A stretch of 64,000 nt of DNA, from the NCBI GenBank assembly GCA_013203315.1, contig JABMQJ010000020.1, positions 6,774-70,773 on the forward strand, read 5' to 3'. How positions within the stretch are numbered: position 1 is the first letter of the stretch; every line of letters starts with the position of its first letter. The position numbers and the translations under genes are program-made. A model generated the notes under the pieces. That model was not told the DNA's origin and searched no databases. It was given only the letters and a program-made list of their open reading frames with translations. The DNA comes from Candidatus Omnitrophota bacterium. GTDB taxonomy: Bacteria; Omnitrophota; Gorgyraeia; JABMRN01; RBG-13-46-9. Positions 7,762 to 26,232 of this stretch are shown here, piece by piece.

Positions 7762-8655
7762 ATGAAAAAAACTCTTTTAATTTTCCTATTTCTTGCTATT
7801 GCTTTATACTCTTTTCCACAAAACGCATTCGGAGGAGCGTGGACCCTTCCTCAATACAAAGTCTGGGGCGAATATTCCTTTAAGTGGCAATGGGCAAAAG
7901 AAGATTTTGGTGACGACTACAAAAAAAAGAAAAAAGGTCAAGACGCCCGTTCCTGGGATTTCATAATGGAGCCCAAGGTTGAAATAGGCATAACGGACTC
8001 ATTCAATCTTTTGTGTTCAATGGAATATAAAGAAAGTAAATATAAAGAGTATGGCCGTCCGGATGACTGGGGGCCGTATAGAAGAAAAAATAACGGCGTA
8101 AGTTACGTAAAGGTCGGGGGCAAATTACGGTTCATTGAAGAGCCATGCGTAATAAGCGGTCAAATAAAAGGCTATTTTTATACCGGTTACGGCAACGATC
8201 ACGGTGATGATCCTGCATATAAAAACCAGCCTGCCATAGGAGACGGCGATGACGCGCTGGAATTACGTGGCTTGATCGGAAAGAGATTTAAGCTTAATAC
8301 GCCCCTTGAAGACTGGACATTGCCATGCTATGCCGGTCTGGAGGCAGGATACAGGTGGCGAAATGCAGCCGTAGCTAATGATATACCTATATTCGTTGAA
8401 ACCGGCTTTTGGCCGTTTAAATGGCTTCTTATAAAAACAGAGCTTGATACAATCATAGCCCACCGTGACACGGGTAGCATAGATAAAGACTATGCAGTAT
8501 GGCGCATAGGCCCCGTATTCCAGATTGCCGGGGATAGCGCCTTAAGAGAGGGTAAGCGAATACTGAATATCGAGCTTCAATACGGCCTAACCGTATGGGG
8601 AAGAGAGACTTCCGCCTATCAGGAACTTACCCTAAAAATACAGGGTGCGTTTTAG
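7762..8655 (+). CDS. hypothetical outer-membrane beta-barrel protein
   Basis: Signal peptide. Rich in aromatic/Gly alternation and ends in '...LKIQGAF' (C-terminal Phe, an OMP signature). No recognisable family. Confidence 0.4.
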   Translation: MKKTLLIFLFLAIALYSFPQNAFGGAWTLPQYKVWGEYSFKWQWAKEDFGDDYKKKKKGQDARSWDFIMEPKVEIGITDSFNLLCSMEYKESKYKEYGRPDDWGPYRRKNNGVSYVKVGGKLRFIEEPCVISGQIKGYFYTGYGNDHGDDPAYKNQPAIGDGDDALELRGLIGKRFKLNTPLEDWTLPCYAGLEAGYRWRNAAVANDIPIFVETGFWPFKWLLIKTELDTIIAHRDTGSIDKDYAVWRIGPVFQIAGDSALREGKRILNIELQYGLTVWGRETSAYQELTLKIQGAF

Positions 8656-8692
8656 ATAATTAGTTAGAAATGAAAAAGTGGGTTCCTATCTA

Positions 8693-8721
8693 TTGACTTA
8701 ACGCCGTAAATGTTCTATACT
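8693..8721 (+). promoter_or_regulatory. sigma70-like promoter (TTGACT - 17 nt - TATACT) driving the riboswitch leader
   Basis: Near-consensus hexamers with a 17-nt spacer, about 45 nt upstream of the first GEMM aptamer. Confidence 0.45.
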
Positions 8722-8769
8722 AGATAATGGAAAAAGGGTAAATTGAGTACTTTGACAATTTGGTAGTTT

Positions 8770-8872
8770 TTCCGACAAAGGCAAACCATTCCCGAAAGGG
8801 TGGGACGCAAAGTCACGGGTCTTCACAGACCACGTTAAAAGCGTGGCGCTGAAAGGCAGCCGGACCGCCGAA
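8770..8872 (+). promoter_or_regulatory. c-di-GMP-I (GEMM-I) riboswitch aptamer #1
   Basis: 'GGCAAACCAUUCCCGAAAGGGUGGGACGCAAAGUCACGGGUCU...ACAGACC...GGCAGCCGGACCGCC' aligns with the Vibrio cholerae Vc2 GEMM-I aptamer ('GGCAAACCAUUCGAAAGAGUGGGACGCAAAGCCUCCGGCCU...'). The GAAA tetraloop and 'ACGCAAAG' core are conserved. Confidence 0.7.
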
Positions 8873-8887
8873 GAAATAAGCGTATTA

Positions 8888-8915
8888 GCCAGGGTTGCCT
8901 GGCTATTTTTATTTC
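8888..8915 (+). terminator. hairpin + U-tract (gccagg-gttg-cctggc tattttt), possible expression-platform terminator
   Basis: 6-bp GC-rich stem followed by a T-rich run, directly after the aptamer. Confidence 0.3.
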
Positions 8916-8916
8916 T

Positions 8917-8946
8917 ACCCCGCTCTCTCGAGAGCGGGGTTTTTGT
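8917..8946 (+). terminator. intrinsic terminator / riboswitch expression platform
   Basis: Palindrome 'ccccgctctc..gagagcgggg' (about 9-10 bp stem) followed by 'ttttt', 7 nt before the GTG/ATG of the downstream gene. Confidence 0.55.
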
Positions 8947-8952
8947 TAGGCG

Positions 8953-9213
8953 GTGATTAAAATGAAGATAAGTGACAAAAAATTTCACAGGGTAATCGCG
9001 GTAATGGATAGAGAGGATATAGATTACCTGGATAAGATTGGCAAGGATTCGCTCTTTACTACAGGCGTTAAGCTTTCCAGGATCAAGATTCTTCGCGCCA
9101 TGGTTGAAGCCATGAAGGAACTTGGCGTAAACGGAAAGTACGTTAAAACCGAAGAAAAGCTAAAAGACGAGATCCTGAAAAAGCGTGCTCATTATAAAGA
9201 AGGTACGATATAG
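8953..9213 (+). CDS. small riboswitch-controlled protein, possible ribbon-helix-helix DNA-binding protein
   Basis: 86 aa (or 83 aa from ATG 8962). Predicted beta-strand 'RVIAVMDRE' followed by two helices. Directly downstream of GEMM-I aptamer #1. Confidence 0.45.
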   Translation: MIKMKISDKKFHRVIAVMDREDIDYLDKIGKDSLFTTGVKLSRIKILRAMVEAMKELGVNGKYVKTEEKLKDEILKKRAHYKEGTI

Positions 9214-9225
9214 GGGTATTTTGTC

Positions 9226-9318
9226 CCGTGAAAAAGGCAAGTCCGCCGAAAGGCGGATACGCAAAGCTACAGGCCTAAGTCAGTAATGCTGATACGGCGG
9301 CTGAGTTACCGGAAAGGA
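9226..9318 (+). promoter_or_regulatory. c-di-GMP-I (GEMM-I) riboswitch aptamer #2
   Basis: 'GGCAAGUCCGCCGAAAGGCGGAUACGCAAAGCUACAGGCCUAAGUCAGUAAUGCUGAUACGGCGGCUGAGUUACCGGAAAGG' matches the Vc2 consensus across P1 (GAAA loop), 'ACGCAAAGC', 'GGCCUAA' and 'GUUACC'. Its 3' end runs into the RBS 'GGAAAGGAGG' of the 9329 gene. Confidence 0.75.
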
Positions 9319-9328
9319 GGCAAATAAA

Positions 9329-9610
9329 ATGAGAAGTGGCAAAAGGATTCTATTAGCGCTCGTTGTCCTTTGGGCCGCGGTTTTCCTGGTTCAAGATGTG
9401 GCGTTTTGCCGTTCAACCAGTCTTACAACAACGCTCTATATAACGGTGAAGGCGCCTCCAAAAGGTAATATAGCGCCCAGCGATAAGAATCTTGAGGCGG
9501 TGGAGAAAATAGCGAAAGATCAGGCAATGACAGCGCCTAACATAAAAGATGTTGCGCCTGAAATTAAGTTTTCTGGAGGTAAGATATACACCATAACAGA
9601 CACGCTTTAA
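9329..9610 (+). CDS. small secreted protein (signal peptide), c-di-GMP riboswitch-controlled
   Basis: 93 aa. Strong RBS. N-terminal signal peptide 'MRSGKRILLALVVLWAAVFLV'. Its stop abuts the convergent 1497-aa gene. Confidence 0.55.
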   Translation: MRSGKRILLALVVLWAAVFLVQDVAFCRSTSLTTTLYITVKAPPKGNIAPSDKNLEAVEKIAKDQAMTAPNIKDVAPEIKFSGGKIYTITDTL

Positions 9611-12600
9611 TTAGAAGTACTTGATCTTTATGGTTTTTTTCTCGAGGATAAAGTCTTCGTCTTCCAGCTTATCTTTAGGCTCTACCGTTATGGGCCTACT
9701 GGCGCTGGGAGAGGCTAATCGATACTGCTTAGGCAGGCGTTTGGTATCTATGTTAAGCTCGTATTCGCCGGGGTATACGTATTCAAAAATAAAACTTCCG
9801 TCAGAAAAAGAATACGTGTCCCTGTATTCCGGGGTAAGGAATATCCGCGCATTCGGAACCGGAATATCAAGGTCTTCCTCAAAAATACCGTTATCGTTAA
9901 CGTCGACGTATATCTTGCCTTCTATTGTTCCCGCCGCAACAACGATAAAAGTTGTTTCCGAAGTTTTAAGCTGTTCCACCAAGACATCCTTTGTCGCATC
10001 GCCTCTTATCATCATGTCAACAGGAAGGCCCCTCATGTCTAACCTTACTTTTCTCGAGCCGGGTACTACTTTTTTGATAAATGCCTTACCACCGGCGTTT
10101 GTCTGGGCGCTTCTTCCTTCAACAACGTAAGCAAGGACATCTTTCATGCCTTTGTCGTCCTTATCCATTTTTTTGTTTCCGTTTGCGTCCTCAAAAACAT
10201 ATACCTTTATCCTGCCCCATTTCTCAGGGGTTGTAATATCAAAAACATGCCTGACAAGAAATAGAACGGACCAATCCTGTGTCGACCTGTAGGTATCGTA
10301 TAAGTCCATGTTATCGGCTTCGTAGGTTAGGCTAAGGGTCGTGACCGGCGAAGGGTTATAATCAATGCCCGTGGAAAACGAGAATATAGAGCTGTTAGCT
10401 ACGGTATCCTGGAAGGCGGTCCGCAACCTGCAGTCTCCGGAGAAGCTAAGATAGGGCAGCAAATAATACCTGCCTGAGAGGGTCGTGTTCCATACCGATG
10501 AGGTCGGCAGGCCGTTCATTGAGAGTTGTTTTGTTTTTGTCAAATCCTGATAAAGCCTTATATAAGAACCGTTTAATTCCGGGAAATATTTATACAGGGT
10601 AGCGGATGCCATGTGATAAAAATTACTGCCGGTACTTCCGCCGAGCGGGTCGGCTCTGTAATATTGATATCCCAACTGCAAGGAGGCTGTTCCCATGGTT
10701 TTGTAATAATCGAAGGAGTAGGTTTTGTAATAGCTTCCGGAAGCGTCCTCGTTGCCTCCGTCCGTAAGGTTGCGACCGTAGTTCCAACCGAAAGAAATAT
10801 TCTGATCATAGGGGAGCCTGTAGTTGAACCCCGTGTACGCGCTCCTTGTATACGAGGTAGTCTCGTCTTTGTTGAAAGCGACGTTATCCCTGCTTACGGT
10901 TCCCGACATATTGAGGCTAAAGTCTTTACTTATTTTAAAGCTTGAACCTATGTCCCAGCCCATGTAGTCCTGATATGTCGTGGGAATACCGATAGACGCG
11001 TATTTATCCCCGATAAACTCGAAAGAAGTGTTCATGTTAAAACGATCGTGCTTGTATTTTATTCCTGTTTTATAATCGAGATCGCTTACAAGTTTATCGC
11101 GCTCGTTATCGGGAAAATAGTTTGATTGGGCATAAGTGTTGTAGAAATTAAAATTCGGAAATACCTGCCAGTCGCTATCCAGTAAATAAACAAAATTCTT
11201 TCTCGGATGAGCGGTGGCGCCTGAGTCCTCTGAAAATTCGGCTTTGTTATATACATACAGTTCCGTCGCGGAAAATTTGAACGTGTCTGTGTCGACCCAA
11301 TCCTGTTTGGAAGCGTAGAGTTCCCCGAAATACTTCACGGTACCGCTACCTTCAGACCTGGGGATAGATATAGCGTCCATCTCACCTGCCCAGAAAGTGG
11401 CCTTTACGGGGGCGTCCTTCTCGGCGTAGTCCATTTCAACGCCCCAATACGGCTGCGACTGCGCTCTTACACTGGGAAGTCTCATGTAATTATCAAGTAG
11501 CTTCAGCGTGTTGTTGTTCTTGGAAAAGGATAAGTGCTGGGCATCTTCTTTCCATGTGTGCTTATCCGATGTATCATAGTCCCTCATGCTCAAATGGCCA
11601 AAAACATCCAAATCGTGTATCCTGCCATTCAGGTAATATTCGTTATACCTCGTGCGCTTTTCTTCAAACATGTCCTCAAAATACCTGAAACTTGCGTCTA
11701 GCTTTAAGTCTATGTCGGGTTGATATTCTGCCGGCAAAAGTTCTTCTCTCACTTCGCGGGGTAATTTGGGGACATCTATTTCTGCTGCCTCTTTCTTCTC
11801 TATTTCCTCAAGCGACATCGGGGGCTTTTCAATCGTGAACATGGTGAGCTCCGGCTTTTCGCCTCTTGTAAATTTCACAAGATTTTCTTCGGGGAAATAC
11901 TTGTATGAAATGCCGGTTGCATCCTTAACTGAGCCCAGGCTTAACAAAAAATTGTCATTATAAATAGCTAAAGGCTTGCGCATGGTAAGAAACGGCTGCT
12001 TGCTTACAAGGCCTTCGGTTTTGCCTACATTCATTTCGAGGGGGATACCGTCATATCTTATGATAATAACAGTCAGGGCTGCGGGCTTCATAAATGTGAG
12101 CCCTATCTGATCGGTAAGCTCTTTAAGAGGGGTCCAAATCTCGTTTCCCTTGCGCAGGCATGGGCTTTCAAACTCAAATTTTTTACCCGCGAATTCAAAG
12201 GCTATATTTCGGTCTATTTCGTAACCGGAGAAATCATATCCGGTCGGCCTCATCCTTCTTGCCTCCACCCATTCGCCTTCCGGGATTCTTTCCACTTCCT
12301 CAACCGTGACTTCAGGGGTTTCCAGGAAAGCGGGTTCCTCTTCGGTAATAAGCGTTCCTCCAGGAATTTCTTCTTCACGCAAGAGAGCAAGTGGTTCTGT
12401 TTCTTCCGGGGTAACCTCCTCGACGGTAACTTCCGCTATAACTTCCTCTATGGTAAGTCCCTTGACGGCATCTTCTTCGACGGCAACTTCCCTTACGGGC
12501 TCTGAGACACGCTCCCTGCGAGTTTTCTTCCCGGCAAACTTTTTTCTTAAAGCGTTTATAAAATTTTTGAAACCGTTCAGCATACCGGCGCGCCTTCCGG

Positions 12601-14104
12601 AGCCGACAAGGGAGGCTTCTGTGGCTGCCTGCTTTCCGGCTTCCCTGGATAACGCAACGAAATTACCCACCGTTTCAGTATTTTGTTTAAGCCCATCGCC
12701 TACTTGTTTGGCGTATTCATTTATGCGCTGGCTTGGGGATGCTGCCGGTGCAATTTCAGCTTCCTCGGTAACGCTTACAATTTCCTTGGGGGCATCGCCT
12801 GTTATGCTTTCTCTTTCGGCGGTTACAAGGGGTGTAGTACTTGCATAATTTCTTAAACGCGTTGCTGTGCTGTCTAGATTTGCCTTCAAGTCGGTGCGCC
12901 TTTCAGAATTAATGAAATATACCTCTTCGGTTACTTTCCTTCCGACCCCCCTTGATGTCGTAATGAATCTTCCGATATTAATGATTCCGTTTTTTATATA
13001 TTTTCCGAAATTCGGTAGCTCTCTTTGGGGCAGGATTCTTTCTCTTTGAGGAGCCATCTCTTGGGGGGCTATTCTTCTTTCCTGGGTTAATCTTTCAGGA
13101 ACCCTAAGCGGCTTAGAGATTTTCTCTAATATTGCGGGTTTTTTTACTTCTGCGGCTCGCTTCGGCATGATACTCGCTACCAGTGATGTTGTCGCAGCAG
13201 GTTTTCTTTTTGCGGGTTTTGCAATAACCGGTTTTTCGACAATCGGCGTTTCCCGGGTAACTTCTTCGATTTCAGGTTCTCTCGTAACTGTGATTTCAGC
13301 TGCTTCTTCAAGTTCTTTTATTTTCTCTTTGCAGCTCCTGACAGCTATTTGTGTCATGTTTTTTGTAATCGATATACGCCTCTTTTTTTCCGGGAAATCT
13401 TCCTCGAGGTTATTTAGTATTTTTAAAACGGTTTTATAATTTTTAAGCGCTACCAGGAATCTCTGGTTCTCTGCGTCAACGGAGGCTTTTTCTAAAAGAC
13501 GGGTTATTTTCTCTATTTCCCTGGAAAACGTTCTGTCTTCCGCCGCCTTGCCGCTAAGGGCGTCTATTTCGTCTCTTAAAACACTTTCCTTGCTTTCTAT
13601 GAGGCGTAGGAGAAGTTTGGCCTCTCTATTGTCGGAAGCGCCTTTTAAAACGAATTCTATCTCGGTTCTGGCGTGGCTATACTTCTTAAGCGCGACGTAA
13701 TAACGGCCTTCGTTTTTCTGGTCTTCCGCGGTGTCGATTAGATTATATGCGTTTTCCAGTTTTTCTTTATATGTATATTTGCTGTTAATATCTTGTTCAA
13801 TATGGCGTATCTGGGTCTTACATTCTTCGATTTTATTTTCCGTGAGATCTTTTAAAAGTGATATACGCTTATTTTGCGGTTCGCTATCCAGGATGTTTCG
13901 GGCAATTGCCAGCGCTTCTTCGTACTTTTGCAGGGCAAACATGAATCTCTGGTCTTCATAAAAACAAGCGCCTTCTTCGACAAGGCTTAAAACGTCGTTT
14001 TCGTTTCCGCTGATTTTGGCATAGGAGTACCCCCAGGAGCCAAAAGTTATAAAAAGGCTCATGATCAAAGTCAACGAAATTAACGAAATCTGCCTTTTTC
14101 TCAT
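9611..14104 (-). CDS. giant (1497 aa) TPR / acidic-linker / outer-membrane beta-barrel / C-terminal beta-sandwich protein, candidate atypical usher of the adjacent pilus-like locus
   Basis: Signal peptide. N-terminal TPR-like helical repeats, a Glu/Pro/Val-rich acidic region, a roughly 600-aa Tyr/Asn/Gly/Asp-rich beta region typical of OM barrels, two CarboxypepD_reg/Cna-B-like beta-sandwich modules, and a C-terminal '...KIKYF'. It occupies the usher position downstream of the chaperone gene. Confidence 0.5.
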   Translation of the reverse strand: MRKRQISLISLTLIMSLFITFGSWGYSYAKISGNENDVLSLVEEGACFYEDQRFMFALQKYEEALAIARNILDSEPQNKRISLLKDLTENKIEECKTQIRHIEQDINSKYTYKEKLENAYNLIDTAEDQKNEGRYYVALKKYSHARTEIEFVLKGASDNREAKLLLRLIESKESVLRDEIDALSGKAAEDRTFSREIEKITRLLEKASVDAENQRFLVALKNYKTVLKILNNLEEDFPEKKRRISITKNMTQIAVRSCKEKIKELEEAAEITVTREPEIEEVTRETPIVEKPVIAKPAKRKPAATTSLVASIMPKRAAEVKKPAILEKISKPLRVPERLTQERRIAPQEMAPQRERILPQRELPNFGKYIKNGIINIGRFITTSRGVGRKVTEEVYFINSERRTDLKANLDSTATRLRNYASTTPLVTAERESITGDAPKEIVSVTEEAEIAPAASPSQRINEYAKQVGDGLKQNTETVGNFVALSREAGKQAATEASLVGSGRRAGMLNGFKNFINALRKKFAGKKTRRERVSEPVREVAVEEDAVKGLTIEEVIAEVTVEEVTPEETEPLALLREEEIPGGTLITEEEPAFLETPEVTVEEVERIPEGEWVEARRMRPTGYDFSGYEIDRNIAFEFAGKKFEFESPCLRKGNEIWTPLKELTDQIGLTFMKPAALTVIIIRYDGIPLEMNVGKTEGLVSKQPFLTMRKPLAIYNDNFLLSLGSVKDATGISYKYFPEENLVKFTRGEKPELTMFTIEKPPMSLEEIEKKEAAEIDVPKLPREVREELLPAEYQPDIDLKLDASFRYFEDMFEEKRTRYNEYYLNGRIHDLDVFGHLSMRDYDTSDKHTWKEDAQHLSFSKNNNTLKLLDNYMRLPSVRAQSQPYWGVEMDYAEKDAPVKATFWAGEMDAISIPRSEGSGTVKYFGELYASKQDWVDTDTFKFSATELYVYNKAEFSEDSGATAHPRKNFVYLLDSDWQVFPNFNFYNTYAQSNYFPDNERDKLVSDLDYKTGIKYKHDRFNMNTSFEFIGDKYASIGIPTTYQDYMGWDIGSSFKISKDFSLNMSGTVSRDNVAFNKDETTSYTRSAYTGFNYRLPYDQNISFGWNYGRNLTDGGNEDASGSYYKTYSFDYYKTMGTASLQLGYQYYRADPLGGSTGSNFYHMASATLYKYFPELNGSYIRLYQDLTKTKQLSMNGLPTSSVWNTTLSGRYYLLPYLSFSGDCRLRTAFQDTVANSSIFSFSTGIDYNPSPVTTLSLTYEADNMDLYDTYRSTQDWSVLFLVRHVFDITTPEKWGRIKVYVFEDANGNKKMDKDDKGMKDVLAYVVEGRSAQTNAGGKAFIKKVVPGSRKVRLDMRGLPVDMMIRGDATKDVLVEQLKTSETTFIVVAAGTIEGKIYVDVNDNGIFEEDLDIPVPNARIFLTPEYRDTYSFSDGSFIFEYVYPGEYELNIDTKRLPKQYRLASPSASRPITVEPKDKLEDEDFILEKKTIKIKYF

Positions 14105-14194: not shown

Positions 14195-15019
14195 TTACTT
14201 TACGTTAAAACTTATTTGCCCCCCTAGGTAATCTTCTCCTCCGTAATCGAGAACTGCCTGAACAAAATACTCTCCCGGCGCAAGCTTCTTTTTGTCATAC
14301 CTAACTGTAAACTCCCTATTCGTCCGGGGGAATATGCCGCCGTCCTGCGAATTAAGTAGGAGTTCGGCTACTTCGGTTTTCGAAGAATCTATTATTTTAA
14401 CCGGGCCGCTTGGTCTTACAAGAATATTGCTGTTATTTCTTACCGTGCAGCTTATGTCAAAAGCGCCGTCTTCATCGGGTTTGCTCACCTTTAAACCCTG
14501 GAGCTCTACATCATAGCTTTCAGCGCCTTTAACCGTTACCAAAAAGATTGATCCGAGCCTTATATTTATTGATGCCCCGGTCGTGGCGCTTAACTCATCT
14601 GCAGGCGGTGATATTTCAAAAAACACAACGCCGTATCTGCCGCCCTTGGCATCTTCCGGAACTTCTACGACATAGCGCACCTTCATCTGGTCCGAAGGTC
14701 CCAGATCAAATTCTGTGGGGCCTATTTTAAGCCAGTCAGCGGCGGTCCAGGGCGTAGTTCCTTCCGGCAGAAAATCATTGCTTCCATCCGGCGCGTAAAC
14801 AAGGTCGTTTACATAGACCTTTACATGTATCGTCTCGTTCTGATCGTAGTTGAGAACGGTTACATACCCGCTCTCAGTACCGCCGGGACTAATGGATAGC
14901 TTTACCCTCGGCGGATCTATGTTCATTTTTATCGCATAAGCGGAAAAATTCATTAAAAATAGAAAAATAACTATAGTGCATGCAAATATCGGTTTTTTTA
15001 TAAACTTAGCAAAACTCAT
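14195..15019 (-). CDS. PapD-like periplasmic pilus chaperone (two Ig-like domains)
   Basis: 274 aa with signal peptide. N-terminal 'IDPPRVKLSISPGG...VTVLNYDQNETIHVKVYV' and 'GGRYGVVFFEISPP' resemble the PapD/CsuC N-domain pattern (conserved Arg in strand A, hydrophobic run then E-I-P-P). Confidence 0.45.
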   Translation of the reverse strand: MSFAKFIKKPIFACTIVIFLFLMNFSAYAIKMNIDPPRVKLSISPGGTESGYVTVLNYDQNETIHVKVYVNDLVYAPDGSNDFLPEGTTPWTAADWLKIGPTEFDLGPSDQMKVRYVVEVPEDAKGGRYGVVFFEISPPADELSATTGASINIRLGSIFLVTVKGAESYDVELQGLKVSKPDEDGAFDISCTVRNNSNILVRPSGPVKIIDSSKTEVAELLLNSQDGGIFPRTNREFTVRYDKKKLAPGEYFVQAVLDYGGEDYLGGQISFNVK

Positions 15020-15519
15020 AATACCTCCACCATAATGAACCTGATATGTGACGTATAAGAACCTGCTGCTTGGTATTTTGGAATTTGTAAGTTATATTTG
15101 AGTTTTATCTGAACCGTTGTGCCCGTATTATCACTGCCTGAGCTTGTATATATCAATACCGGTCTCGTCGCGAAATCGCCGGGACTGCCAACGCTGTTTG
15201 AAACAAGTCCTCCGCCGTTTACCACCTGCTCTACTATCCACTGCATGTTCTCCGCCGGTATGGAATGCTGAGCGCTTGTAAACGGGCGCATCATCTGTAC
15301 CTTAAAATACCACGTTCTTTCGTTATCGGAGGTAAAATCGAACCTGTGTTCGTAATTACCTTTTCTTGTAATCGATTTTTTTTCGTTCATTTGCATGGTT
15401 CCGAAATCAATCGTTTGAAAGCCTTCACCTAACGACATTTCAAAGGTCGCAAAAGATCTTGCCTCCATTAGGACTAGAAGCATAAAAACTAAAATAATGA
15501 AAATCGGCTTTTTAATCAT
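15016..15519 (-). CDS. SCPU/Csu-pilin-like secreted subunit (paralog 1)
   Basis: 167 aa with signal peptide. C-terminal strand 'AGSYTSHIRFIMVEVL' fits the 'G-Y-T-x-T-V-T-V-T' motif shared by the paralogs. Confidence 0.45.
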   Translation of the reverse strand: MIKKPIFIILVFMLLVLMEARSFATFEMSLGEGFQTIDFGTMQMNEKKSITRKGNYEHRFDFTSDNERTWYFKVQMMRPFTSAQHSIPAENMQWIVEQVVNGGGLVSNSVGSPGDFATRPVLIYTSSGSDNTGTTVQIKLKYNLQIPKYQAAGSYTSHIRFIMVEVL

Positions 15520-15523
15520 CGCT

Positions 15524-16075
15524 TTACTCTGTCTCCGTAATAAGATATGCTACTTTCAGGCCGTAATGGCCTCCCATCGCCGAACCCGGCAAATCAAGCT
15601 TGTATTGGAATCGCAATATGAGCTCTTTCCCTATCTCATCTTCTGTGTCGCTTGTATATACAACCTGCGGTTCATCTGAAAATTCCTGCCAACCGGGCGC
15701 TGCTATCCCGCGGCCATCTGTATGGTATATGCGCCATTTAAAGCTTTCTGGCGGTATCTGATTCCCTTTTGGGCCTATAACTTCATTAAGAATATGTATT
15801 TTTACGTAATATTTTCTTCCCTTGTTGGCAGCACACTTTATTGTATTGTAATATGTGCCTTCTTTTAATGTTACACTATCTCCGGGGTTAACAACGCCAA
15901 AATTAATATAATTATTATCAATATTTATATCGAAAACGGGAAGGACTACAACTGAGGCAAATATATCTTCTATGTCCTCATCTGCATTGCAAATACAAGG
16001 CACCAGGACAGCAAAAACCACCACCAATGATGCAAAAACCCCTATTATATTACACTTAGCTCTATATATAGTCAT
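15524..16075 (-). CDS. SCPU/Csu-pilin-like secreted subunit (paralog 2)
   Basis: 183 aa. N-terminal hydrophobic segment. C-terminal 'GGHYGLKVAYLITETE'. Confidence 0.45.
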   Translation of the reverse strand: MTIYRAKCNIIGVFASLVVVFAVLVPCICNADEDIEDIFASVVVLPVFDINIDNNYINFGVVNPGDSVTLKEGTYYNTIKCAANKGRKYYVKIHILNEVIGPKGNQIPPESFKWRIYHTDGRGIAAPGWQEFSDEPQVVYTSDTEDEIGKELILRFQYKLDLPGSAMGGHYGLKVAYLITETE

Positions 16076-16184
16076 TTTAGTAGTATAAGTATACCATAAA
16101 TATGTTTAAAAAGCAAATGTCCTTAGTGTTTTGGCTAAGGCCAAACTAAAGATGCGTAACTTCAAAGTTTTCAATGAGTTACGC

Positions 16185-16778
16185 TTAAGGTGCCGTTGTC
16201 ATCGTATATGTTACCGACACCGTATATGTCCGTTCGGCACTAAGCCCTCTTGGGTCAACGCCAAAGCTAAAAGTTGAGAGCGTTCCGAATGGCGTATTGA
16301 CCGTATCCAGAGACCCGGAGGTATAGATATTTGACGATTCCGTAGGTATCGGCGTCCATTCTACGCTGCCGGCTAGGGTTCCGTCTGTTTGCTGGTTTGC
16401 GTTCCTATCCCACGGTTGTGTATAATAGTACTTTGCGTTACCGGCAAACAAGCCTTCTGAATATACCCCCTGCATTTTTAAATACCATGGCACGCCCATA
16501 TTACTGATACACACTACCCCTGTATCGCTCTTTCCGTCATCCTCTTTTCTTCCGTTAGGATATACCAAAGATTTTGTGGGGTCAACATTGCTGAACGGCA
16601 CGGCTGTAGAGTATATCACGCTCGCGTCAGTATAAAATTCCATTGAAAATATACTTGTCGCGGTAACGGTGACGTTTGTCGTAAGAGAGCTGTCTAGAGC
16701 TATTGCGTTGCTCTGCGCTATCAGAAAAACGGCCACCAGGGCTAAGATCTTTATATCTATCATTTTATACAAAGACAC
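16185..16778 (-). CDS. SCPU/Csu-pilin-like secreted subunit (paralog 3)
   Basis: 197 aa with signal peptide. GTG start preceded by GGAGG. C-terminal 'ERTYTVSVTYTMTTAP'. Confidence 0.5.
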   Translation of the reverse strand: MSLYKMIDIKILALVAVFLIAQSNAIALDSSLTTNVTVTATSIFSMEFYTDASVIYSTAVPFSNVDPTKSLVYPNGRKEDDGKSDTGVVCISNMGVPWYLKMQGVYSEGLFAGNAKYYYTQPWDRNANQQTDGTLAGSVEWTPIPTESSNIYTSGSLDTVNTPFGTLSTFSFGVDPRGLSAERTYTVSVTYTMTTAP

Positions 16779-16890
16779 TTTTTTGCCTCCGTTATTAACT
16801 TCCTAAAAAAAATTACTTCTTCGACGGGTTTTAAGTCCTCGCAGTTTAAGTAATGACCGATGCATCTCCAGACCACCCAAAGGTCTGCGC

Positions 16891-16920
16891 GATCGGTGTG
16901 TCTTTTAAGACACACCGATC
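16891..16920 (-). terminator. intercistronic perfect 13-14-bp stem-loop after putative major subunit gene (partial terminator / mRNA stabiliser)
   Basis: Perfect palindrome 'gatcggtgtgtctt tt aagacacaccgatc' 38 nt downstream of the stop of the 16958-17536 gene. A second 6-bp hairpin lies next to it (16868-16888). No clean U-tract. Confidence 0.4.
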
Positions 16921-16957
16921 ATTATCTTATCTGCATTACGTTTTCCGAGAAGCAATA

Positions 16958-17536
16958 TTATGCTGTTTCGGTTAACGTATAGGTAATCGTACCAGTATAG
17001 GGACCGGGTGCCAATCCTGAGCCATCAACCTTGAAGCTCAAAGTTGCCAGTGTTCCCTCCGGTGTATTGGTTTCGTCTGCGGTTCCAGCTGTGTATAAAG
17101 TTACAGCAGCGCCCGTGAGATCGAACCAGGTTAGATCACCATATGTTCGGCCACCATCTGCAGGTGTACCCCAGTTTCGGTTCGTAGGTTGGCCCATGTT
17201 ACCGGCCAATTTTGTAAGAAGCGGTGATGCAGCGTTCATTGCGATTTTCAAATACCAAGGATTTCCCTGGTTTGATTTTATCGTAAGACCTACATCTGAT
17301 TTACCGTCATCTTGTGCTCTTCCGTCTGCATAGTTGTATGCACTTGACGGGTCTACAGTGGAAAACGGAATGGCTGTCGAATACAGTACATTCGCGTCCG
17401 TGTAAAACGCCATCGAGAATATGCTACCAACTGATGCAGTAACGTTTGAATTGAGTGTCTGGTCAGCTGCATAAGAAGCACCTGCTATCGCGATTGCGAA
17501 TAGCATTACCATAGATGTAATCACTAGTTTTTTCAT
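16958..17536 (-). CDS. SCPU/Csu-pilin-like secreted subunit (paralog 4; putative major subunit)
   Basis: Start moved to the Met at 17536 (RBS AAAGGAGG 6 nt upstream), giving 'MKKLVITSMVMLFAIAIAGASYA' as signal peptide. C-terminal 'GPYTGTITYTLTETA'. Own upstream region of about 270 nt, and the strong hairpin downstream. Confidence 0.5.
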   Translation of the reverse strand: MKKLVITSMVMLFAIAIAGASYAADQTLNSNVTASVGSIFSMAFYTDANVLYSTAIPFSTVDPSSAYNYADGRAQDDGKSDVGLTIKSNQGNPWYLKIAMNAASPLLTKLAGNMGQPTNRNWGTPADGGRTYGDLTWFDLTGAAVTLYTAGTADETNTPEGTLATLSFKVDGSGLAPGPYTGTITYTLTETA

Positions 17537-17656
17537 TTTGTTCACCTCCTTTGTTTTGTTTTTAAATTGTTTTAGTAACCCTTTATTTAGCATTTCTGTT
17601 TTTCCCATCATGTCTTTAGTATATCATATTTAGTTTTTCCTGTGGTCACGGCTGAG

Positions 17657-17681
17657 TAACATCAATGTAACATCAATGTAA
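17657..17681. repeat. tandem 11-mer 'taacatcaatg' x2 (+taa) in the upstream region of the putative major subunit gene
   Basis: Exact tandem duplication 120-145 nt upstream of the 17536 start codon. Candidate regulator binding site. Confidence 0.4.
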
Positions 17682-17808
17682 TAAGGCCAGTGAGTCTGAA
17701 GCAGGGCTCCATTATATATAATGCGATAATTGTGCTAAAATTTCATTAAATACTATAATATAGCAAAAAGCGAGAAAGAGCGGAAAATCTAACTTTTTAT
17801 ACCTAACA

Positions 17809-18411
17809 TCACGCTGAAAGCGTCATCGTAAACTGAATTTGACACGCATAATTATTGTTAGCGTCTAGCTGGCTTGGGTTAATCGCAAAACTGAAACCGC
17901 AGAGGGTGCCCTGCTGCCATGTTTCAGCGCCCATATTATTTAAATCGTTGGCTCCTGCTGTAAAAATTCTCGCAGGTGATGTGGGAAGGGGCTGCCATCC
18001 TTCTATCAGTGCTCCGTTTGAAGACTGGCCATACCTCATGTTCCATGGTCGCCAAAAACCGTACTTTACCTGCTCTAGGAAAAAACCGCCCGGGCTTCCC
18101 TGAATCTTTAAATACCAGGTTTCACCAAGGTTGCTTTTGCATAATAGGCCTATGTCGTTGTTCCCGTCACCCTGAGAACGATTATCAGCCTGGACCCATG
18201 TTTTTGTAGGATCCATATTTGTAAAGGAAACCTGCGTGGTATATAGATATTTACTAGGTTCGCCCGTATAGAACTCCATCATAAAAATATTGCTAACATC
18301 AAAGCTACCTGCAGCTATTACGGTTCTTGTTTCAGCAAAAGAAGATTGGCCTACAAAGCTTGCGGCCGTTACAGTCAGTAAAAGAGTGGTTATTAAAAAT
18401 ATTTTTTTCAT
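17809..18411 (-). CDS. SCPU/Csu-pilin-like secreted subunit (paralog 5)
   Basis: Start moved to the Met at 18411 (RBS AAGGGGGG). Signal peptide 'MKKIFLITTLLLTVTAASFVGQSSFA'. C-terminal 'NNYACQIQFTMTLSA'. Confidence 0.45.
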   Translation of the reverse strand: MKKIFLITTLLLTVTAASFVGQSSFAETRTVIAAGSFDVSNIFMMEFYTGEPSKYLYTTQVSFTNMDPTKTWVQADNRSQGDGNNDIGLLCKSNLGETWYLKIQGSPGGFFLEQVKYGFWRPWNMRYGQSSNGALIEGWQPLPTSPARIFTAGANDLNNMGAETWQQGTLCGFSFAINPSQLDANNNYACQIQFTMTLSA

Positions 18412-18525
18412 ATTAGCCCCCCTTAGTATCGTTTTATATTCTAACAAAAAAAATGTGCAAAGTAAACAAAAAAAGCTGACTTTTTCATATCTAACTTATT
18501 TTTAATAACCCTTAGCCCTTTATCA

Positions 18526-19920
18526 TCACATCGCGCCTGAACCCGAAAACACAACGGGGATTGTTTTTAATAAAAGTTTAAGGTCCATCCATAAGGACCA
18601 GTTATCAATATATTCCAAATCTAATTCCATCCATTTATCAAAATCAAGCATGCTTCTGCCACTTACCTGCCAGATACATGTTATGCCGGGCTTCATGCTG
18701 AGCCTTCTACGCTGCCAGTCTTCGTATTTTTCGACTTCCTCCTGAATAGGGGGTCGCGGACCTACAACCGACATATCGCCTTTTAATACATTGATAAACT
18801 GGGGCAATTCATCTATGCTTGTCCTTCTCAAAAAACGGCCTATGGGGGTAAAGCGCGGGTCTTTTTTAATCTTAAAAATGGGTCCCCTCATTTCGTTTAA
18901 GGCCTCTAACCTATCTTTTATCTCCTCGGCTCCCACCACCATGCTTCTGAACTTTAACATAATAAATTTTCTTCCATTCAGCCCCGTTCTTTCCTGTTTA
19001 AAAAGAACGGGGCCCGGGGAAGTCCGTTTTATGACTACTGCCACCAATAAAAACAAGGGGCTTGACATAACCAATACGAGAAGAGAAAAGATTATATCAA
19101 ATAACCTTTTCAGGAAAAGCTCTTCCTGCCGAATAAATATTGTATTGAAACTTACAAGCGGAAAACCGCCTAGGCTTGCAAAGGTCCCTTTGGCAATTTT
19201 TAAATCATAAAGATCCATCGCAATGTGGGTTCTTATTCCTTCCAGTTCGCATTGAATAATACTTTTTTCTATTTTGCTCAGCCACGACCTCGGAACAATA
19301 TATACAACCTCATCAATAACCTCTGCATGTAGAATTTCGGTCATATCTTTCAAAAGACCCGTAACCTTTATCCCGCATACCTCCATATTAAGCCGGGCCG
19401 GATCGTTATCTATTATTTTCATCACCCTGAGCCCCCATTGCGGATGCTTGTTAATCAGATTGATAAATCTCTCTGCCCTTAGGCCGGTGCCTACTATCAA
19501 GATGCGCCTGTAATTATAGCCCTTTCGCCTTATATATCGGCTAACACCTATTATGGTTAACTTTTCAAATAATAATAAACAGATTGCGAGCGCCAAGAAC
19601 GCAATTAAAAACTCCCTTGTAAGATACGGAATTCTAAGAATATAAGCCGCGGAAATGAAGAATAGACTCGCCAAGAGGCTCCCTTTGACGACCAACCCCA
19701 TAGCGTCTATGATTCCTCTTATTCTGAAAGATTTATATAATCCTAAATAAATAAATATATTTATCCATACGGGAACGATAATAAAAAGTGGCCATAGATA
19801 TTGCTCTACTGCATAAGGCAGGGATTCTACATAACAGGCTACTATATAAGCGCCTGCTATAAATATACTGTCTGCCAGCATTATTATTTTTCTTAAAAAA
19901 TTTTCTCTTTCCTTTATCAT
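18526..19920 (-). CDS. undecaprenyl-phosphate sugar phosphotransferase (WbaP/WcaJ-like priming glycosyltransferase)
   Basis: 464 aa, N-terminal TM helices. C-terminal bacterial sugar transferase domain ('DELPQFINVLKGDMSVVGPRP', 'KPGITCIWQVSGRS'). Confidence 0.7.
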   Translation of the reverse strand: MIKERENFLRKIIMLADSIFIAGAYIVACYVESLPYAVEQYLWPLFIIVPVWINIFIYLGLYKSFRIRGIIDAMGLVVKGSLLASLFFISAAYILRIPYLTREFLIAFLALAICLLLFEKLTIIGVSRYIRRKGYNYRRILIVGTGLRAERFINLINKHPQWGLRVMKIIDNDPARLNMEVCGIKVTGLLKDMTEILHAEVIDEVVYIVPRSWLSKIEKSIIQCELEGIRTHIAMDLYDLKIAKGTFASLGGFPLVSFNTIFIRQEELFLKRLFDIIFSLLVLVMSSPLFLLVAVVIKRTSPGPVLFKQERTGLNGRKFIMLKFRSMVVGAEEIKDRLEALNEMRGPIFKIKKDPRFTPIGRFLRRTSIDELPQFINVLKGDMSVVGPRPPIQEEVEKYEDWQRRRLSMKPGITCIWQVSGRSMLDFDKWMELDLEYIDNWSLWMDLKLLLKTIPVVFSGSGAM

Positions 19921-20077
19921 AACCGGCCCTTTTGTAATAGAACCCGCTCAATTACGCAGATTGTTCTCACATAATCATATAATAGCATAATCTCTATCAT
20001 AAATGGTAACGTAACCTTAATAATACGATGAAAGTTATGTAACAAAATGTAGCAGATGAGAGGACATTTTTCACTGT

Positions 20078-22357
20078 TTACTGAACCCCGCTGATTCTAA
20101 GGGCTACATCTTTCTCAAACGACGGAACCTTTATTGCCATTCCCTTGCCTGATGAAACAGCTTTTTCTCGATACAAGGGCCTCGCCTTCCATGTATCCCA
20201 CCATTCTATGCTATATTCCCCATTGGGTAAATCAAGAACTTCTAATGTTGCCCCTTTTACCTCTTGTGGTTTAATTCCTTTATAACTATTGTACCAATTA
20301 CTCTCTTTATTTTGTATCCAGAATATTGCCTCTTTCCCGCACTGCAATCCCAACACGCGGATATCCATGGATGAGCCTTTTTTATAATTTGTGAGCACAA
20401 CCTTTTTAATAGAAAGCCAATCTTTTCCGACATTCTCCAAGCGTATGATATGCTCACCTTGAGGAATGTTAATTTTACAGTCCTCCATGTAGTCATACTG
20501 ATATATCCCCCACTCATCCCGGTATCTCCTTCGCTTCCAATTCCCCTTACCCTCGGGAGTCTCCCCGGGGAATTCTCTGCTAAACATTTTTTGGCCATCC
20601 ACATATACGTTGAGCACTGCACGCACAGAAACTTGATCTACTGTGATAATAAATTCTCCTTTGCGGGGGTAATTAACTCTGAAAACAGGACATACGCGTA
20701 TATCCTGTTTATCCATACCATGAAGATACATATTTAATTTACCGCCTTTTAAGGTTCCGTTGTTTAATGCTTCGATTTCTCTATCATCTTCATTACCCCA
20801 ATCGTCCGCTACAGGTATAGATACATCGCGATTACCTATTGCTCCTTGGTGTACATTGTCTTCGGGGTATACGTGAAATTTGGCTCTACCCCAACCATTT
20901 CTGGGTAAATTTAAATTCTTAACAAATAAAGAAAATGTCTTGTAGTGCTCGTATAAATTTTTTTGATTAATATAATCATCCCACCACCAATTCATCGCAC
21001 CGCCAAGGGCTTGAGAAAAAAGACCCGCCCATAGGCAGTTATGAATATGAATTCCGTTTCCTACGGTATCGTAGAATTTATCGCTTTTCGTACTATCTAT
21101 GCCGTATTCGCCTATCAAAGATGGTTTACGATACTTCGTTACATACTGCATTGTTTTATAATTGATAGTATCAACCAGATCACAAAAGGCCCCTCTGCGT
21201 CCATAAATGTGGACCTGCGAGAAATCTATAGAGGGTAATTTCCAGATTTCATCTTCGTTAAAACCATTGAACTCGAGCATCCCTATGCTTGTTGTCACAA
21301 GATGGCCATGAGGATCGATATCCTTTATATACTCTGACATTTCTTTAACCCAAAACACGGGGGCATTTGTTTCATTCCATAATTCAAAAGCGAGTAAGTT
21401 TTTATAGGCTCCCCACCGGGCGACAATATAACGTAATCGTTTTTTATAATACTCTTGCGCGTTTTCATTTGTCCAAAATTCTGCGGGGCTTACACAGGGT
21501 CCGCCATTAGACGCATTATATGGATTGCGACCCCATTCCGGGACGCCCCAAAATATTTTATGTGCGGCTAACTCTTTGTAATTTCCCAGAACCAGGATAA
21601 CATATAACCCCTTTTTGTCTGCCTCCTTCAAAATATGATCGAGGCGCCATGCGTTCCGGAGATTATAGCGCCCCAATCCGGAGAAACCCTCCTTTGAAAC
21701 ATTATTTTTAGCCCATTCCAGAGCCAAATTCCAGGAAACCATCCAAATGCGAACAATATTACACCCATTATCAGATAATTTTTCAAAATAAGAATCGTAT
21801 GCGTATGTCTGCTTACGATCTGTCCAGCCTACATTCTCTCCTATGCCAAAGTAGATTTCACCGGAATCAAAAAACAAATAAGGTGTAGAGCTAGCTCGCA
21901 GAAATCCTGGCTTAATAGATTTCGTAACATTAAAAGTTTCTTCTTTGGTTCTCAATTTTCTCTTTCCGAATTGTGCTGTTAGAAAAACACGATAAATTCC
22001 TATCTCTCTTGGCGTAAAGCGTACCTTCCACTGAGGAGAACCTACTGCTTCCAATATCTCACGGCCTTCTGATAAATCTCTTGAAAACCCCTGGTAATAG
22101 AATGCAGGTATAATTAATTCATTCTGGTTCGGTGAGATAAAATGGGCTTTTATATCGACCTGGTTAGGATCAAAGGGGTTATCAAAAACACCTTTCGTAT
22201 CTATATCAAGCTCCAAGATATCAAATTGCTTAACCGGATGTTCTATTTTAACAAATGAAATATGAGGACCATCTTTCGCAATGACTGCACAGGACGCGAA
22301 AATAATCAATAAAATAAGAATCGGTTTTACTAGCATTTTTAGCTGTCCATATTTCAT
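20078..22357 (-). CDS. secreted glycoside hydrolase, GH5-family TIM barrel with N-terminal Ig-like (DUF5060-like) domain
   Basis: 759 aa with signal peptide. 'AFELWNETN' (clan GH-A catalytic acid/base NE motif) and a second Glu in 'LIGEYGID'. Confidence 0.5.
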   Translation of the reverse strand: MKYGQLKMLVKPILILLIIFASCAVIAKDGPHISFVKIEHPVKQFDILELDIDTKGVFDNPFDPNQVDIKAHFISPNQNELIIPAFYYQGFSRDLSEGREILEAVGSPQWKVRFTPREIGIYRVFLTAQFGKRKLRTKEETFNVTKSIKPGFLRASSTPYLFFDSGEIYFGIGENVGWTDRKQTYAYDSYFEKLSDNGCNIVRIWMVSWNLALEWAKNNVSKEGFSGLGRYNLRNAWRLDHILKEADKKGLYVILVLGNYKELAAHKIFWGVPEWGRNPYNASNGGPCVSPAEFWTNENAQEYYKKRLRYIVARWGAYKNLLAFELWNETNAPVFWVKEMSEYIKDIDPHGHLVTTSIGMLEFNGFNEDEIWKLPSIDFSQVHIYGRRGAFCDLVDTINYKTMQYVTKYRKPSLIGEYGIDSTKSDKFYDTVGNGIHIHNCLWAGLFSQALGGAMNWWWDDYINQKNLYEHYKTFSLFVKNLNLPRNGWGRAKFHVYPEDNVHQGAIGNRDVSIPVADDWGNEDDREIEALNNGTLKGGKLNMYLHGMDKQDIRVCPVFRVNYPRKGEFIITVDQVSVRAVLNVYVDGQKMFSREFPGETPEGKGNWKRRRYRDEWGIYQYDYMEDCKINIPQGEHIIRLENVGKDWLSIKKVVLTNYKKGSSMDIRVLGLQCGKEAIFWIQNKESNWYNSYKGIKPQEVKGATLEVLDLPNGEYSIEWWDTWKARPLYREKAVSSGKGMAIKVPSFEKDVALRISGVQ

Positions 22358-24200: not shown

Positions 24201-24204
24201 AGAT

Positions 24205-25185: not shown

Positions 25186-25190
25186 AAAAA

Positions 25191-26210: not shown

Positions 26211-26232
26211 CTTTTTCCTTTTTAATTTTCGT

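Follow-up and report, generated by a model that had tools for sequence, protein, structure and literature searches.

Two class-I c-di-GMP riboswitches in a candidate two-gene operon convergent with a pilus-like locus of Omnitrophota

Class-I riboswitches for c-di-GMP (cyclic dimeric GMP), also called GEMM-I, are typified by Vc2 of Vibrio cholerae and by Rfam family RF01051. Three bases, G20, A47 and C92, contact the ligand in the Vc2 structures, and type 2 members of the class, which lack the tetraloop receptor, are known. Here we describe two such aptamers in a 64,000-nucleotide (nt) stretch of DNA from an Omnitrophota bacterium (GenBank assembly GCA_013203315.1, contig JABMQJ010000020.1, positions 6,774 to 70,773 of the forward strand; hereafter the window). 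Aptamer 1 precedes gene 1, which encodes an 83-amino-acid (aa) protein with a ribbon-helix-helix (RHH) fold, and aptamer 2 precedes gene 2, which encodes a small, predicted secreted protein; the pair is convergent with a pilus-like fibre locus. Both aptamers share with Vc2 the two-hairpin architecture, the GNRA tetraloop, the ACGCAAAG junction and the bases G20, A47 and C92, and aptamer 2 also has the receptor, whereas aptamer 1 has no receptor and carries a long insert in P2. Neither an Omnitrophota host nor RHH or small secreted protein genes are among the hosts and targets of c-di-GMP-I riboswitches that we found described in the literature. We consider it likely that the two genes form an operon under c-di-GMP control at two successive levels, exerted by two separate canonical GEMM-I riboswitches.

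Terminator-coupled OFF switches of this class are exemplified by Cd1, upstream of flgB in Clostridioides difficile. As in such switches, an intrinsic terminator follows the aptamer within ~10-20 nt, and competition between the 3' part of the aptamer and the 5' strand of the terminator can be seen in related loci (L022/L023/L025, L036, L067 and L006; L numbers denote gene 1-homologue loci). The present leader differs in having two consecutive terminators and, in the window, no recognisable antiterminator. The preliminary description of the window had called the two aptamers tandem. Tandem riboswitches are defined as having no intervening open reading frame (ORF), and a survey from which gaps >300 nt were excluded counted 347 doublets and 12 triplets of c-di-GMP-I riboswitches (Sherlock et al. 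2022, PMC9481103); Bc3-5 of Bacillus thuringiensis is a triple tandem (PMC4759541). Our locus resembles these in that a single predicted transcript carries two aptamers of the same class, and each is served by a separate expression platform. The label does not fit, however, because an ORF of 83 aa lies between the aptamers, which are 352 nt apart (8873 to 9226), and they would serve different genes through different mechanisms (transcription, then translation) rather than sharpen one response. Since ORF-separated and widely spaced layouts were left out of the survey, arrangements of the form aptamer-ORF-aptamer would have gone uncounted.

Among protein regulators, AmrZ of Pseudomonas is an RHH regulator tied to c-di-GMP biology, and MrkH is a PilZ-domain transcription factor. 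The domain encoded by gene 1 is joined to PilZ in many relatives (see below), which resembles MrkH in combining a c-di-GMP receptor with a DNA-binding-type module, whereas the protein of the window has no PilZ domain. CdbA of Myxococcus is another RHH regulator tied to c-di-GMP biology (PMC7156744). The gene 1 product has no detectable sequence similarity to AmrZ or CdbA (6% identity) and differs from them in its longer inter-helix loop and extra C-terminal helix. Furthermore, c-di-GMP would act here through the mRNA, or through the fused PilZ domain in relatives, and not by known direct binding. Such RHH regulators, which connect to c-di-GMP by other routes, and the terminator-coupled OFF switches come closest as functional analogues.

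Two class-I aptamers and their genes

A cmscan search of the whole window with Rfam at gathering thresholds (GA) returned exactly two matches, both on the plus strand (Table 1). They agree to within 1-5 nt with the GEMM-I aptamers placed earlier at 8770-8872 and 9226-9318, and each motif then named can be read in the sequence (GAAA tetraloop, ACGCAAAG, GGCCUAA, 3' ACCG segment). Aptamer 2 scores well above the RF01051 threshold. Same-clan competition hid two overlapping weaker matches, each of which reached its own gathering score, and aptamer 1 should therefore pass RF01051 as well. Our own covariance model, trained on 19 related aptamers, gives 75.3 bits for aptamer 1 and 87.1 bits for aptamer 2. 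In an alignment of 36 aptamers from related loci, 95.5% of the cells in the P1/P2 pairings are standard pairs, and 19 of the 24 pairs are changed on both sides; because the alignment was fitted to the model, these figures are somewhat inflated toward the structure, yet the contrast with slid registers, which are only 26-42% paired, is still large, and none of 500 shuffles reaches any of the measures.

Table 1. Features of the riboswitch region and the convergent locus (positions in the window)
Feature	Position	Strand	Remarks
Sigma-70-type promoter	8693..8721	+	TTGACT (-35), 17-nt spacer, TATACT (-10); 10/12 consensus positions
Leader motif	8740..8761	+	AAATTGAGTACTTTGACAATTT with TTTGACA core (8752-8758); candidate operator bound by the RHH protein, alternatively an RNA hairpin
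c-di-GMP-I aptamer 1	8771..8873	+	RF03167 (c-di-GMP-I-GGC) best clan member, 59.4 bits (GA 59), E 1.7e-11
Intrinsic terminator T1	8886..8916	+	stem UAGCCAGG/CCUGGCUA, loop GUUG (8886-8905), then UUUUUAUUUCU; hairpin and T-run
Intrinsic terminator T2	8917..8945	+	10-bp G+C-rich stem (8917-8940), then UUUUU; hairpin and T-run
Gene 1 ribosome-binding site (RBS)	8952..8957	+	GGUGAU, 4 nt 5' of AUG; from sequence, (A/G)GGUGA kept in most close orthologues
Gene 1	8962..9213	+	83-aa protein, RHH fold plus C-terminal helix
Pyrimidine tract	9219..9227	+	UUUUGUCCC, 5' of and overlapping aptamer 2 P1; complementary to Shine-Dalgarno region GGAGGCAAA
c-di-GMP-I aptamer 2, canonical type	9226..9313	+	RF01051, 80.6 bits (GA 35), E 2.8e-14
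Gene 2 Shine-Dalgarno (SD) sequence	9316..9320	+	GGAGG, 3 nt past aptamer 2, 8 nt before AUG; CCGAAAGGAGGCAAA kept in L001, L002, L003, L005, L009, L010, L027
Gene 2	9329..9610	+	93-aa precursor of ~65-aa secreted protein; signal peptide, then STSLTTT..ITVK ... KIYTITD
Last gene of fibre locus	9611..14104	-	convergent; 1497-aa secreted protein; TPR-like N-terminus, Cu_amine_oxidN1, CarboxypepD_reg/SdrD_B-like C-terminal domains
Rest of pilus-like locus	14195..18447	-	one 274-aa protein and five ~170-220-aa secreted proteins; no curated family

The three bases that contact c-di-GMP can be located in both aptamers from the Rfam alignments and the sequence: G20, A47 and C92 correspond to 8780, 8809 and 8868 in aptamer 1, and to 9236, 9263 and 9309 in aptamer 2. 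In aptamer 1, P1b is capped by the GAAA tetraloop, the P2 arm has an additional hairpin and, at the position of the CCUAAG tetraloop receptor, UCUUCACAG instead; P1 can be extended (8767-8774 with 8869-8876). Aptamer 2 has the GAAA tetraloop together with the CCUAAG...UACGG receptor, and its P1 pairs 9226-9228 with 9310-9312. Both aptamers are ordinary members of class I (GEMM-I) and would be expected to bind c-di-GMP.

The leader of gene 1 begins at the near-consensus promoter that had been proposed upstream of aptamer 1. This is the sole promoter-like site on the plus strand within 8500-9800, and TTGACT...TATACT is also found upstream of aptamer 1 in nine relatives (L002, L003, L004, L009, L010, L013, L030, L031 and L032). 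The two hairpins that follow aptamer 1, likewise noted before, are conserved. T1, whose U-rich tail pairs with the A-rich segment 8872-8880 as a lower stem, is kept in L001-L006, L010, L013, L031 and L032 with compensatory changes (CCAGG/CCUGG, CCGGG/CCCGG, CCAGA/UCUGG), and T2 lies in the same place in close relatives (L001-L006, L009, L010) and in the more distant L032. Two other pairings in the leader were set aside. The ACCGCC of aptamer 1 (8864-8869) pairs with GGCGGU at the gene 1 RBS (8949-8954) in the minimum free energy fold of the window, but this is not conserved in L002, L003 and L009, and pairing of a 5' GGAAAAA with the 5' strand of P1 is not conserved in L013.

Genes 1 and 2 are 115 nt apart, and aptamer 2, which starts 13 nt past the gene 1 TAG, fills this space. 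The aptamer had been described as ending inside the SD sequence of gene 2; the adjacency holds, with the aptamer ending 3 nt before GGAGG. The complementarity of the pyrimidine tract to the SD region occurs in the same register in all nine orthologues. No promoter-like site was found between the two genes, which are therefore probably co-transcribed. As the anti-SD tract lies within a ribosome footprint of the gene 1 stop codon, gene 2 may in addition become unmasked when gene 1 is translated.

A second aptamer together with gene 2 is present in the window and in nine fetched relatives (eight distinct), whose gene 1 products are all at least 64% identical; here the aptamer starts 4-21 nt past the stop codon (90 nt in L005). 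The signal peptide of the 93-aa gene 2 product agrees with its earlier description as secreted. A 100%-identical copy is annotated in a Candidatus Omnitrophica metagenome-assembled genome (MAG), homologues are confined to close relatives, and the product has no Pfam, NCBIfam or informative PDB sequence match.

Five GEMM-I aptamers of relatives contain a two-hairpin insertion of 58-80 nt at a fixed site that has the GAC bulge on one side and the GC of GACGCAAAG on the other (L001 9522-9596; L030 2287-2364; L005 1126-1200; L010 4118-4192; L003 8128-8185, minus strand). Its first hairpin shows G-C to A-U covariation at the closing pair, the inserts in the first aptamer of L001 and the second aptamer of L005 are 86% identical over 43 nt, and no copies occur outside aptamers in the fetched DNA. 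In the aptamers that bear it, the Rfam score drops to the threshold or lower (37.5 and 36.1 bits), or the aptamer is missed. The insertion could be a structured GEMM-I subclass or a site-specific insertion element. It is not a hammerhead ribozyme, since the CUGAUGA it contains is inside a stem and not conserved, and the apparent double aptamers of L030 and L035 are each one aptamer split by an internal insertion, not a tandem. Separately, long G+C-rich palindromes (CCCCGCCCTTTTGGCG ... CGCCAAAAGGGCGGGG) are repeated at L005 455-505, 640-700 and 1220-1275 and at L010 3683-3750. They occupy the second terminator, the P2 loop of an aptamer and the 5' leader, and resemble a small dispersed repeat family.

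The gene 1 family and its leader motif

We surveyed 64 loci with gene 1 homologues, the window and 63 fetched ones, some of which are duplicates (L028 repeats L001), so that the number of independent loci is somewhat smaller. A GEMM-I aptamer lies no more than 350 nt upstream on the same strand in 53 of the 64; three of the 11 aptamer-free loci simply have no upstream DNA. The distance from the aptamer to the mapped start is typically 90-125 nt, and up to ~350 nt, over a wide range of divergence.

Gene 1 most likely starts at ATG 8962, which gives 83 aa as in all homologues, and not at GTG 8953. We found 34 gene 1-like proteins from Omnitrophota, 61-98% identical and nearly all 83 aa long, and a profile search extends the family to 264 clusters at E<=1e-3; one hit of that search, the G5-repeat protein P0110, is a false positive (P numbers denote proteins). 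The RHH assignment in the preliminary description stands at the level of the fold, whereas the sequence-profile match it would lead one to expect was not obtained. With an alignment of 108 sequences, AlphaFold predicts the monomer at a predicted local distance difference test (pLDDT) score of 86.9, as an extended N-terminal segment, two helices and then a third helix; a shallow alignment gave an unusable AlphaFold2 model (pLDDT 52.7). The N-terminal strand and the two helices can be superposed on known RHH domains, and the top structural neighbours are almost all DNA-binding RHH domains. The gene 1 product is most likely a DNA-binding regulator.

Among the 30 long representatives of the family that we scanned, at least 23 have a C-terminal PilZ domain and three have an N-terminal receiver domain. 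Because the same domain is found behind GEMM-I leaders and in PilZ fusions, the gene 1 module would be under c-di-GMP control either way, by means of its mRNA or of a receptor domain fused to it. The searchable literature yielded no description of the gene 1 family or of an RHH-PilZ architecture.

The leader motif upstream of aptamer 1 may be the site at which this protein acts. Its core, in the form TTTG(TG)ACA, occurs in 19 of the 48 130-nt windows upstream of aptamers, at 3.68 per kb compared to 0.059 per kb elsewhere in the loci (62-fold), and often in two or three copies (L006, L010, L022, L023). In L002, L003 and L036 some changes in the flanking arms are compatible with G-U pairs, which would also suit an RNA hairpin. 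In L015 and L054, however, the motif lies inside the -35/-10 spacer, which is not transcribed, and this favours a DNA site over an RNA element. The motif is not a second promoter, as there is no -10 element at a workable distance, and the idea that it is an operator shared with the fibre locus was dropped for want of extra copies above chance. It is a reasonable inference that the RHH protein autoregulates through the TTTGACA-containing motif.

Two proteins of the family, P0043 (159 aa) and P0044 (183 aa), carry an RHH domain fused, by way of a hydrophobic segment, to a part that looks like the L006 gene 2 product; the similarity of this part to the gene 2 product of the window is weak (pairwise E 0.018). 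They could be a Rosetta-stone link that ties gene 1 to gene 2, or an artefact of gene calling, and they hint that the two products may work together. Some genomes have two paralogous riboswitch-RHH units: L001 and L004 both belong to MAG RBG_13_46_9, and L014 and L018 lie on one contig. The second copy in RBG_13_46_9 (L004) has no second aptamer and a different secreted protein downstream.

Direction of control and alternative explanations

Our proposal starts from the identity of the aptamers and their binding-site bases, the promoter, the terminators, the RHH fold, and the conserved association and synteny of aptamers and genes. The strong sigma-70 promoter would drive a leader containing aptamer 1, T1 and T2. 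Because the aptamer is followed by two intrinsic terminators, aptamer 1 would act on transcription elongation into gene 1. The RHH protein would bind the TTTGACA-containing motif in its own leader. Aptamer 2 would act on translation initiation of the small secreted protein, because its P1 and 3' tail abut GGAGG and the 5' pyrimidine tract can pair there. The output of the operon is likely control of the convergent pilus-like surface structure. Our best guess is that high c-di-GMP lowers expression at both switches, so that the RHH protein would be a repressor of the low-c-di-GMP state.

The direction assigned to aptamer 1 draws on the family. An intrinsic terminator follows the aptamer in 35 of 38 leaders, and in those 35 loci its 5' strand begins 4-24 nt past the aptamer and never within it. 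Over the same loci, the complementarity between the 5' strand of the terminator and the 3' portion of the aptamer is above that of shuffles (Wilcoxon p = 0.018). In several relatives an OFF layout can be recognised: the terminator 5' strand can pair with the 3' strand of P1 in L022/L023/L025 (UAGGG-loop-CCCUA vs CCCUAAA/UUUAGGG) and in L036, where CCUAAGGG occurs in both the P1 3' strand and the terminator 3' strand, and with the 3' strand of P2 in L067 and L006. The leader of the window itself, folded with and without the aptamer, has no antiterminator for T1 beyond chance, as judged, in the window and close relatives, by comparing duplex energies with those of shuffles, by folding truncated transcripts and from pairing probabilities; the recurrent GCC:GGC contact with T1 is 3 bp only. 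Because of the family-wide terminator placement and complementarity we lean toward an OFF switch for aptamer 1; an ON switch seems appreciably less probable, and the case that the aptamer does no real switching is improbable. At aptamer 2, P1 is coaxial with the anti-SD:SD helix in L001, L002, L003, L005, L010 and L027, and here too our preference, a mild one, is for OFF.

Several observations weigh against the proposal. T1 and T2 form in every predicted fold of the window, with or without the aptamer, so that no coupling of aptamer 1 to termination can be seen there. In aptamer 1 the tetraloop receptor is absent, P2 has an A-C mismatch at its base, and the score barely attains the RF03167 threshold. 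Against composition-preserving shuffles the complementarity of the anti-SD tract at aptamer 2 is not individually significant, and in the window a CCC is common to P1 and the anti-SD helix; the logic of aptamer 2 is therefore ambiguous, with either direction possible. For the regulator, neither the window protein nor 32 homologues match an RHH family in Pfam or NCBIfam, profile searches against the PDB gave no matches, hhalign to Arc gave a probability of 0.3, and a Foldseek search against the PDB gave no match. The TTTG(TG)ACA motif was defined post hoc, on related sequences, and has no further copies above chance in the fibre locus of the window. No fibre locus was detectable beside the more distant gene 1 homologues (<=55% identity). 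Finally, the sequence comes from a MAG of an uncultured Omnitrophota bacterium.

The foremost alternative, possible but doubtful, is ON logic, in which c-di-GMP binding would raise the RHH protein, the secreted protein or both, with a positive effect on the fibre at high c-di-GMP. Many characterised GEMM-I switches before adhesin or pilus genes are ON switches. In the window the 3' strand of P1 (8869-8876) overlaps the A-rich partner (8872-8880) of the T1 U-tract, so that a P1 stabilised by ligand could weaken T1, and at aptamer 2 the CCC at 9225-9227 chooses between P1 and the SD sequence, so that P1 formation could partly free GGAGG. However, the overlap at T1 is not conserved (it is absent from L006) and lies beyond the termination decision point, the terminator stem overlaps the aptamer, as an ON design would need, in 0 of 35 loci, and several relatives have the clear OFF designs described above.

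It is also conceivable, but unlikely, that the RHH protein is not a transcription factor but works with the gene 2 product or the pilus machinery as their partner or adaptor, in the manner of RHH antitoxins and assembly factors, the riboswitches then tuning the stoichiometry of a complex. The joining of the domain to a gene 2-like sequence in P0043 and P0044, the L017 homologue directly before PilT/MshEN/PilB/PilC genes (see below) and the absence of a copy of the leader motif from the fibre locus would all suit such a role. Yet the top structural neighbours are almost all DNA-binding domains, DNA-binding modules typically take the place of the output domain behind a receiver and beside PilZ, a repeated motif is kept in the protein's own promoter region, and the two fusions may be artefacts of gene calling.

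Less probable still is that aptamer 1 with T1 and T2 mainly makes a free-standing terminated small RNA of ~190-220 nt, a c-di-GMP sink or trans-acting RNA like the merRNA of Bdellovibrio, with gene 1 expressed by leak-through only. The near-consensus promoter, the two strong terminators that fold whatever the state of the aptamer and the failure to find an antiterminator in the window fit this idea, as do the long spacers after T2 in L001, L004, L005 and L013, which could hold a promoter of their own. The window, by contrast, has no room for a promoter between the end of T2 (8945) and the RBS (8952), the occurrence of the aptamer in the same orientation before the gene in most of the surveyed loci is a signature of cis-regulation, and distant relatives have a single terminator with OFF-type alternative pairings.

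We regard it as very improbable that aptamer 1 is a specificity variant (RF03167 GGC or the cyclic GMP-AMP-sensing GEMM-Ib) and that the operon integrates two signals: RF03167 is the best clan member because of the unusual P2 arm, with no CCUAAG receptor and an extra hairpin, but the RF03167 consensus differs from RF01051 by the G in ACGCGAA (position 47, Vc2 numbering), whereas aptamer 1 reads ACGCAAAG and not ACGCGAAG, with A at 8809 and C at 8868 and the model-consensus G unmatched in the Rfam alignment, and it is therefore not a GGC variant; both aptamers have G where GEMM-Ib would have A at position 20; the RF03167-labelled aptamers of relatives (seven checked, among them L009, L015, L018, L025 and L026) all read ACGCAAAG; and where the receptor is normal, the orthologous first aptamer is assigned to RF01051.

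The convergent fibre locus and implications

The gene 2 stop is at 9610 and the stop codon of the 1497-aa gene occupies 9611-9613 on the minus strand, which bears out the 0-nt convergence reported before. Orthologues of the 1497-aa gene are convergent with the gene 1/gene 2 pair in L001, L002, L003, L005, L006, L009, L013, L027, L031 and L032, so at least 10 related loci keep the arrangement. The convergent genes abut in the window and L009 (0 nt) and stand 4-23 nt apart in L002, L003 and L005 and ~80 nt apart in L001, whereas in L006 they overlap by 17 nt. Neither a spacer nor a terminator hairpin was found between the convergent genes (window 9560-9700). Since there is no room for a terminator, the two transcripts probably overlap at their 3' ends; the tight or overlapping convergence is kept in L002, L003, L005, L006 and L009, and such overlap offers a possible mechanism of interference.

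Across the window and its relatives the conserved genes of the fibre locus encode one secreted protein of 920-1500 aa, one protein of ~270 aa and several secreted proteins of ~170-220 aa. No informative family was obtained for the fibre-locus proteins from sequence searches of Pfam, NCBIfam and the PDB; the locus in L006 additionally has a protein with T2SS-T3SS_pil_N (pilus-formation N-terminal domain) and a secretin. Beyond the fibre genes of the window lies an exopolysaccharide (EPS)-type cluster (18526-27648, minus strand) with a Bac_transf priming sugar transferase, WecG/TagA, GT9 and GT1 glycosyltransferases and two radical S-adenosylmethionine (radical-SAM) proteins. The link between the operon and fibre/EPS control is consistent with this synteny, from which it is drawn, and is circumstantial.

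Two relatives have neighbourhoods of their own interest. L003 contains a third c-di-GMP-I aptamer (8082-8220, minus strand; Rfam 36.1 bits) ~65 nt upstream of a ~199-aa fibre-locus gene, which would place the fibre genes of L003 themselves under riboswitch control. At L017 10001-16608, a distant gene 1 homologue (55% identity, no aptamer detected) lies immediately 5' of genes for a PilT-like ATPase, an MshEN-domain protein, two PilB-like ATPases with MshEN and a PilC-like protein; judged by these domains, it is a type IV pilus context with putative protein-level c-di-GMP sensors. On the other side of the operon, a 297-aa secreted protein without a family match (7762-8655, plus strand) ends with a terminator-like hairpin of its own (8628-8647), a short distance upstream of the riboswitch promoter. 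Its homologues lie upstream near the riboswitch region on the same strand in L002 and L010 and on the opposite strand in L031.

A bolder and more tentative model would have the 83-aa protein found an undescribed family of RHH transcription factors, a c-di-GMP output module that is GEMM-I-gated and autoregulated through TTTGACA when it stands alone, or, in other lineages, is wired to c-di-GMP by a fused PilZ domain or to phosphorelays by a fused receiver domain; in this Omnitrophota clade the second riboswitch would separately gate its secreted partner, and terminator-less convergent transcription would help to turn on or off the pilus-like fibre.

The riboswitch class itself is a textbook one, and the aptamers add little that is new, although the recurrent structured insertion inside the aptamers of relatives adds interest. 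What the aptamers do provide is a mark: a riboswitch identifies the downstream gene as a member of the ligand's regulon without an experiment. For a small RHH family that has no name in the databases, the riboswitches and the independent PilZ and receiver fusions jointly mark a probable signalling output module. The aptamer-ORF-aptamer layout would amount to serial control, in which the transcription of a regulator is set first and then the translation of the next gene. To our knowledge, Omnitrophota is a phylum without cultured model organisms, and this locus may offer a testable entry into its c-di-GMP biology and the control of its surface fibres.

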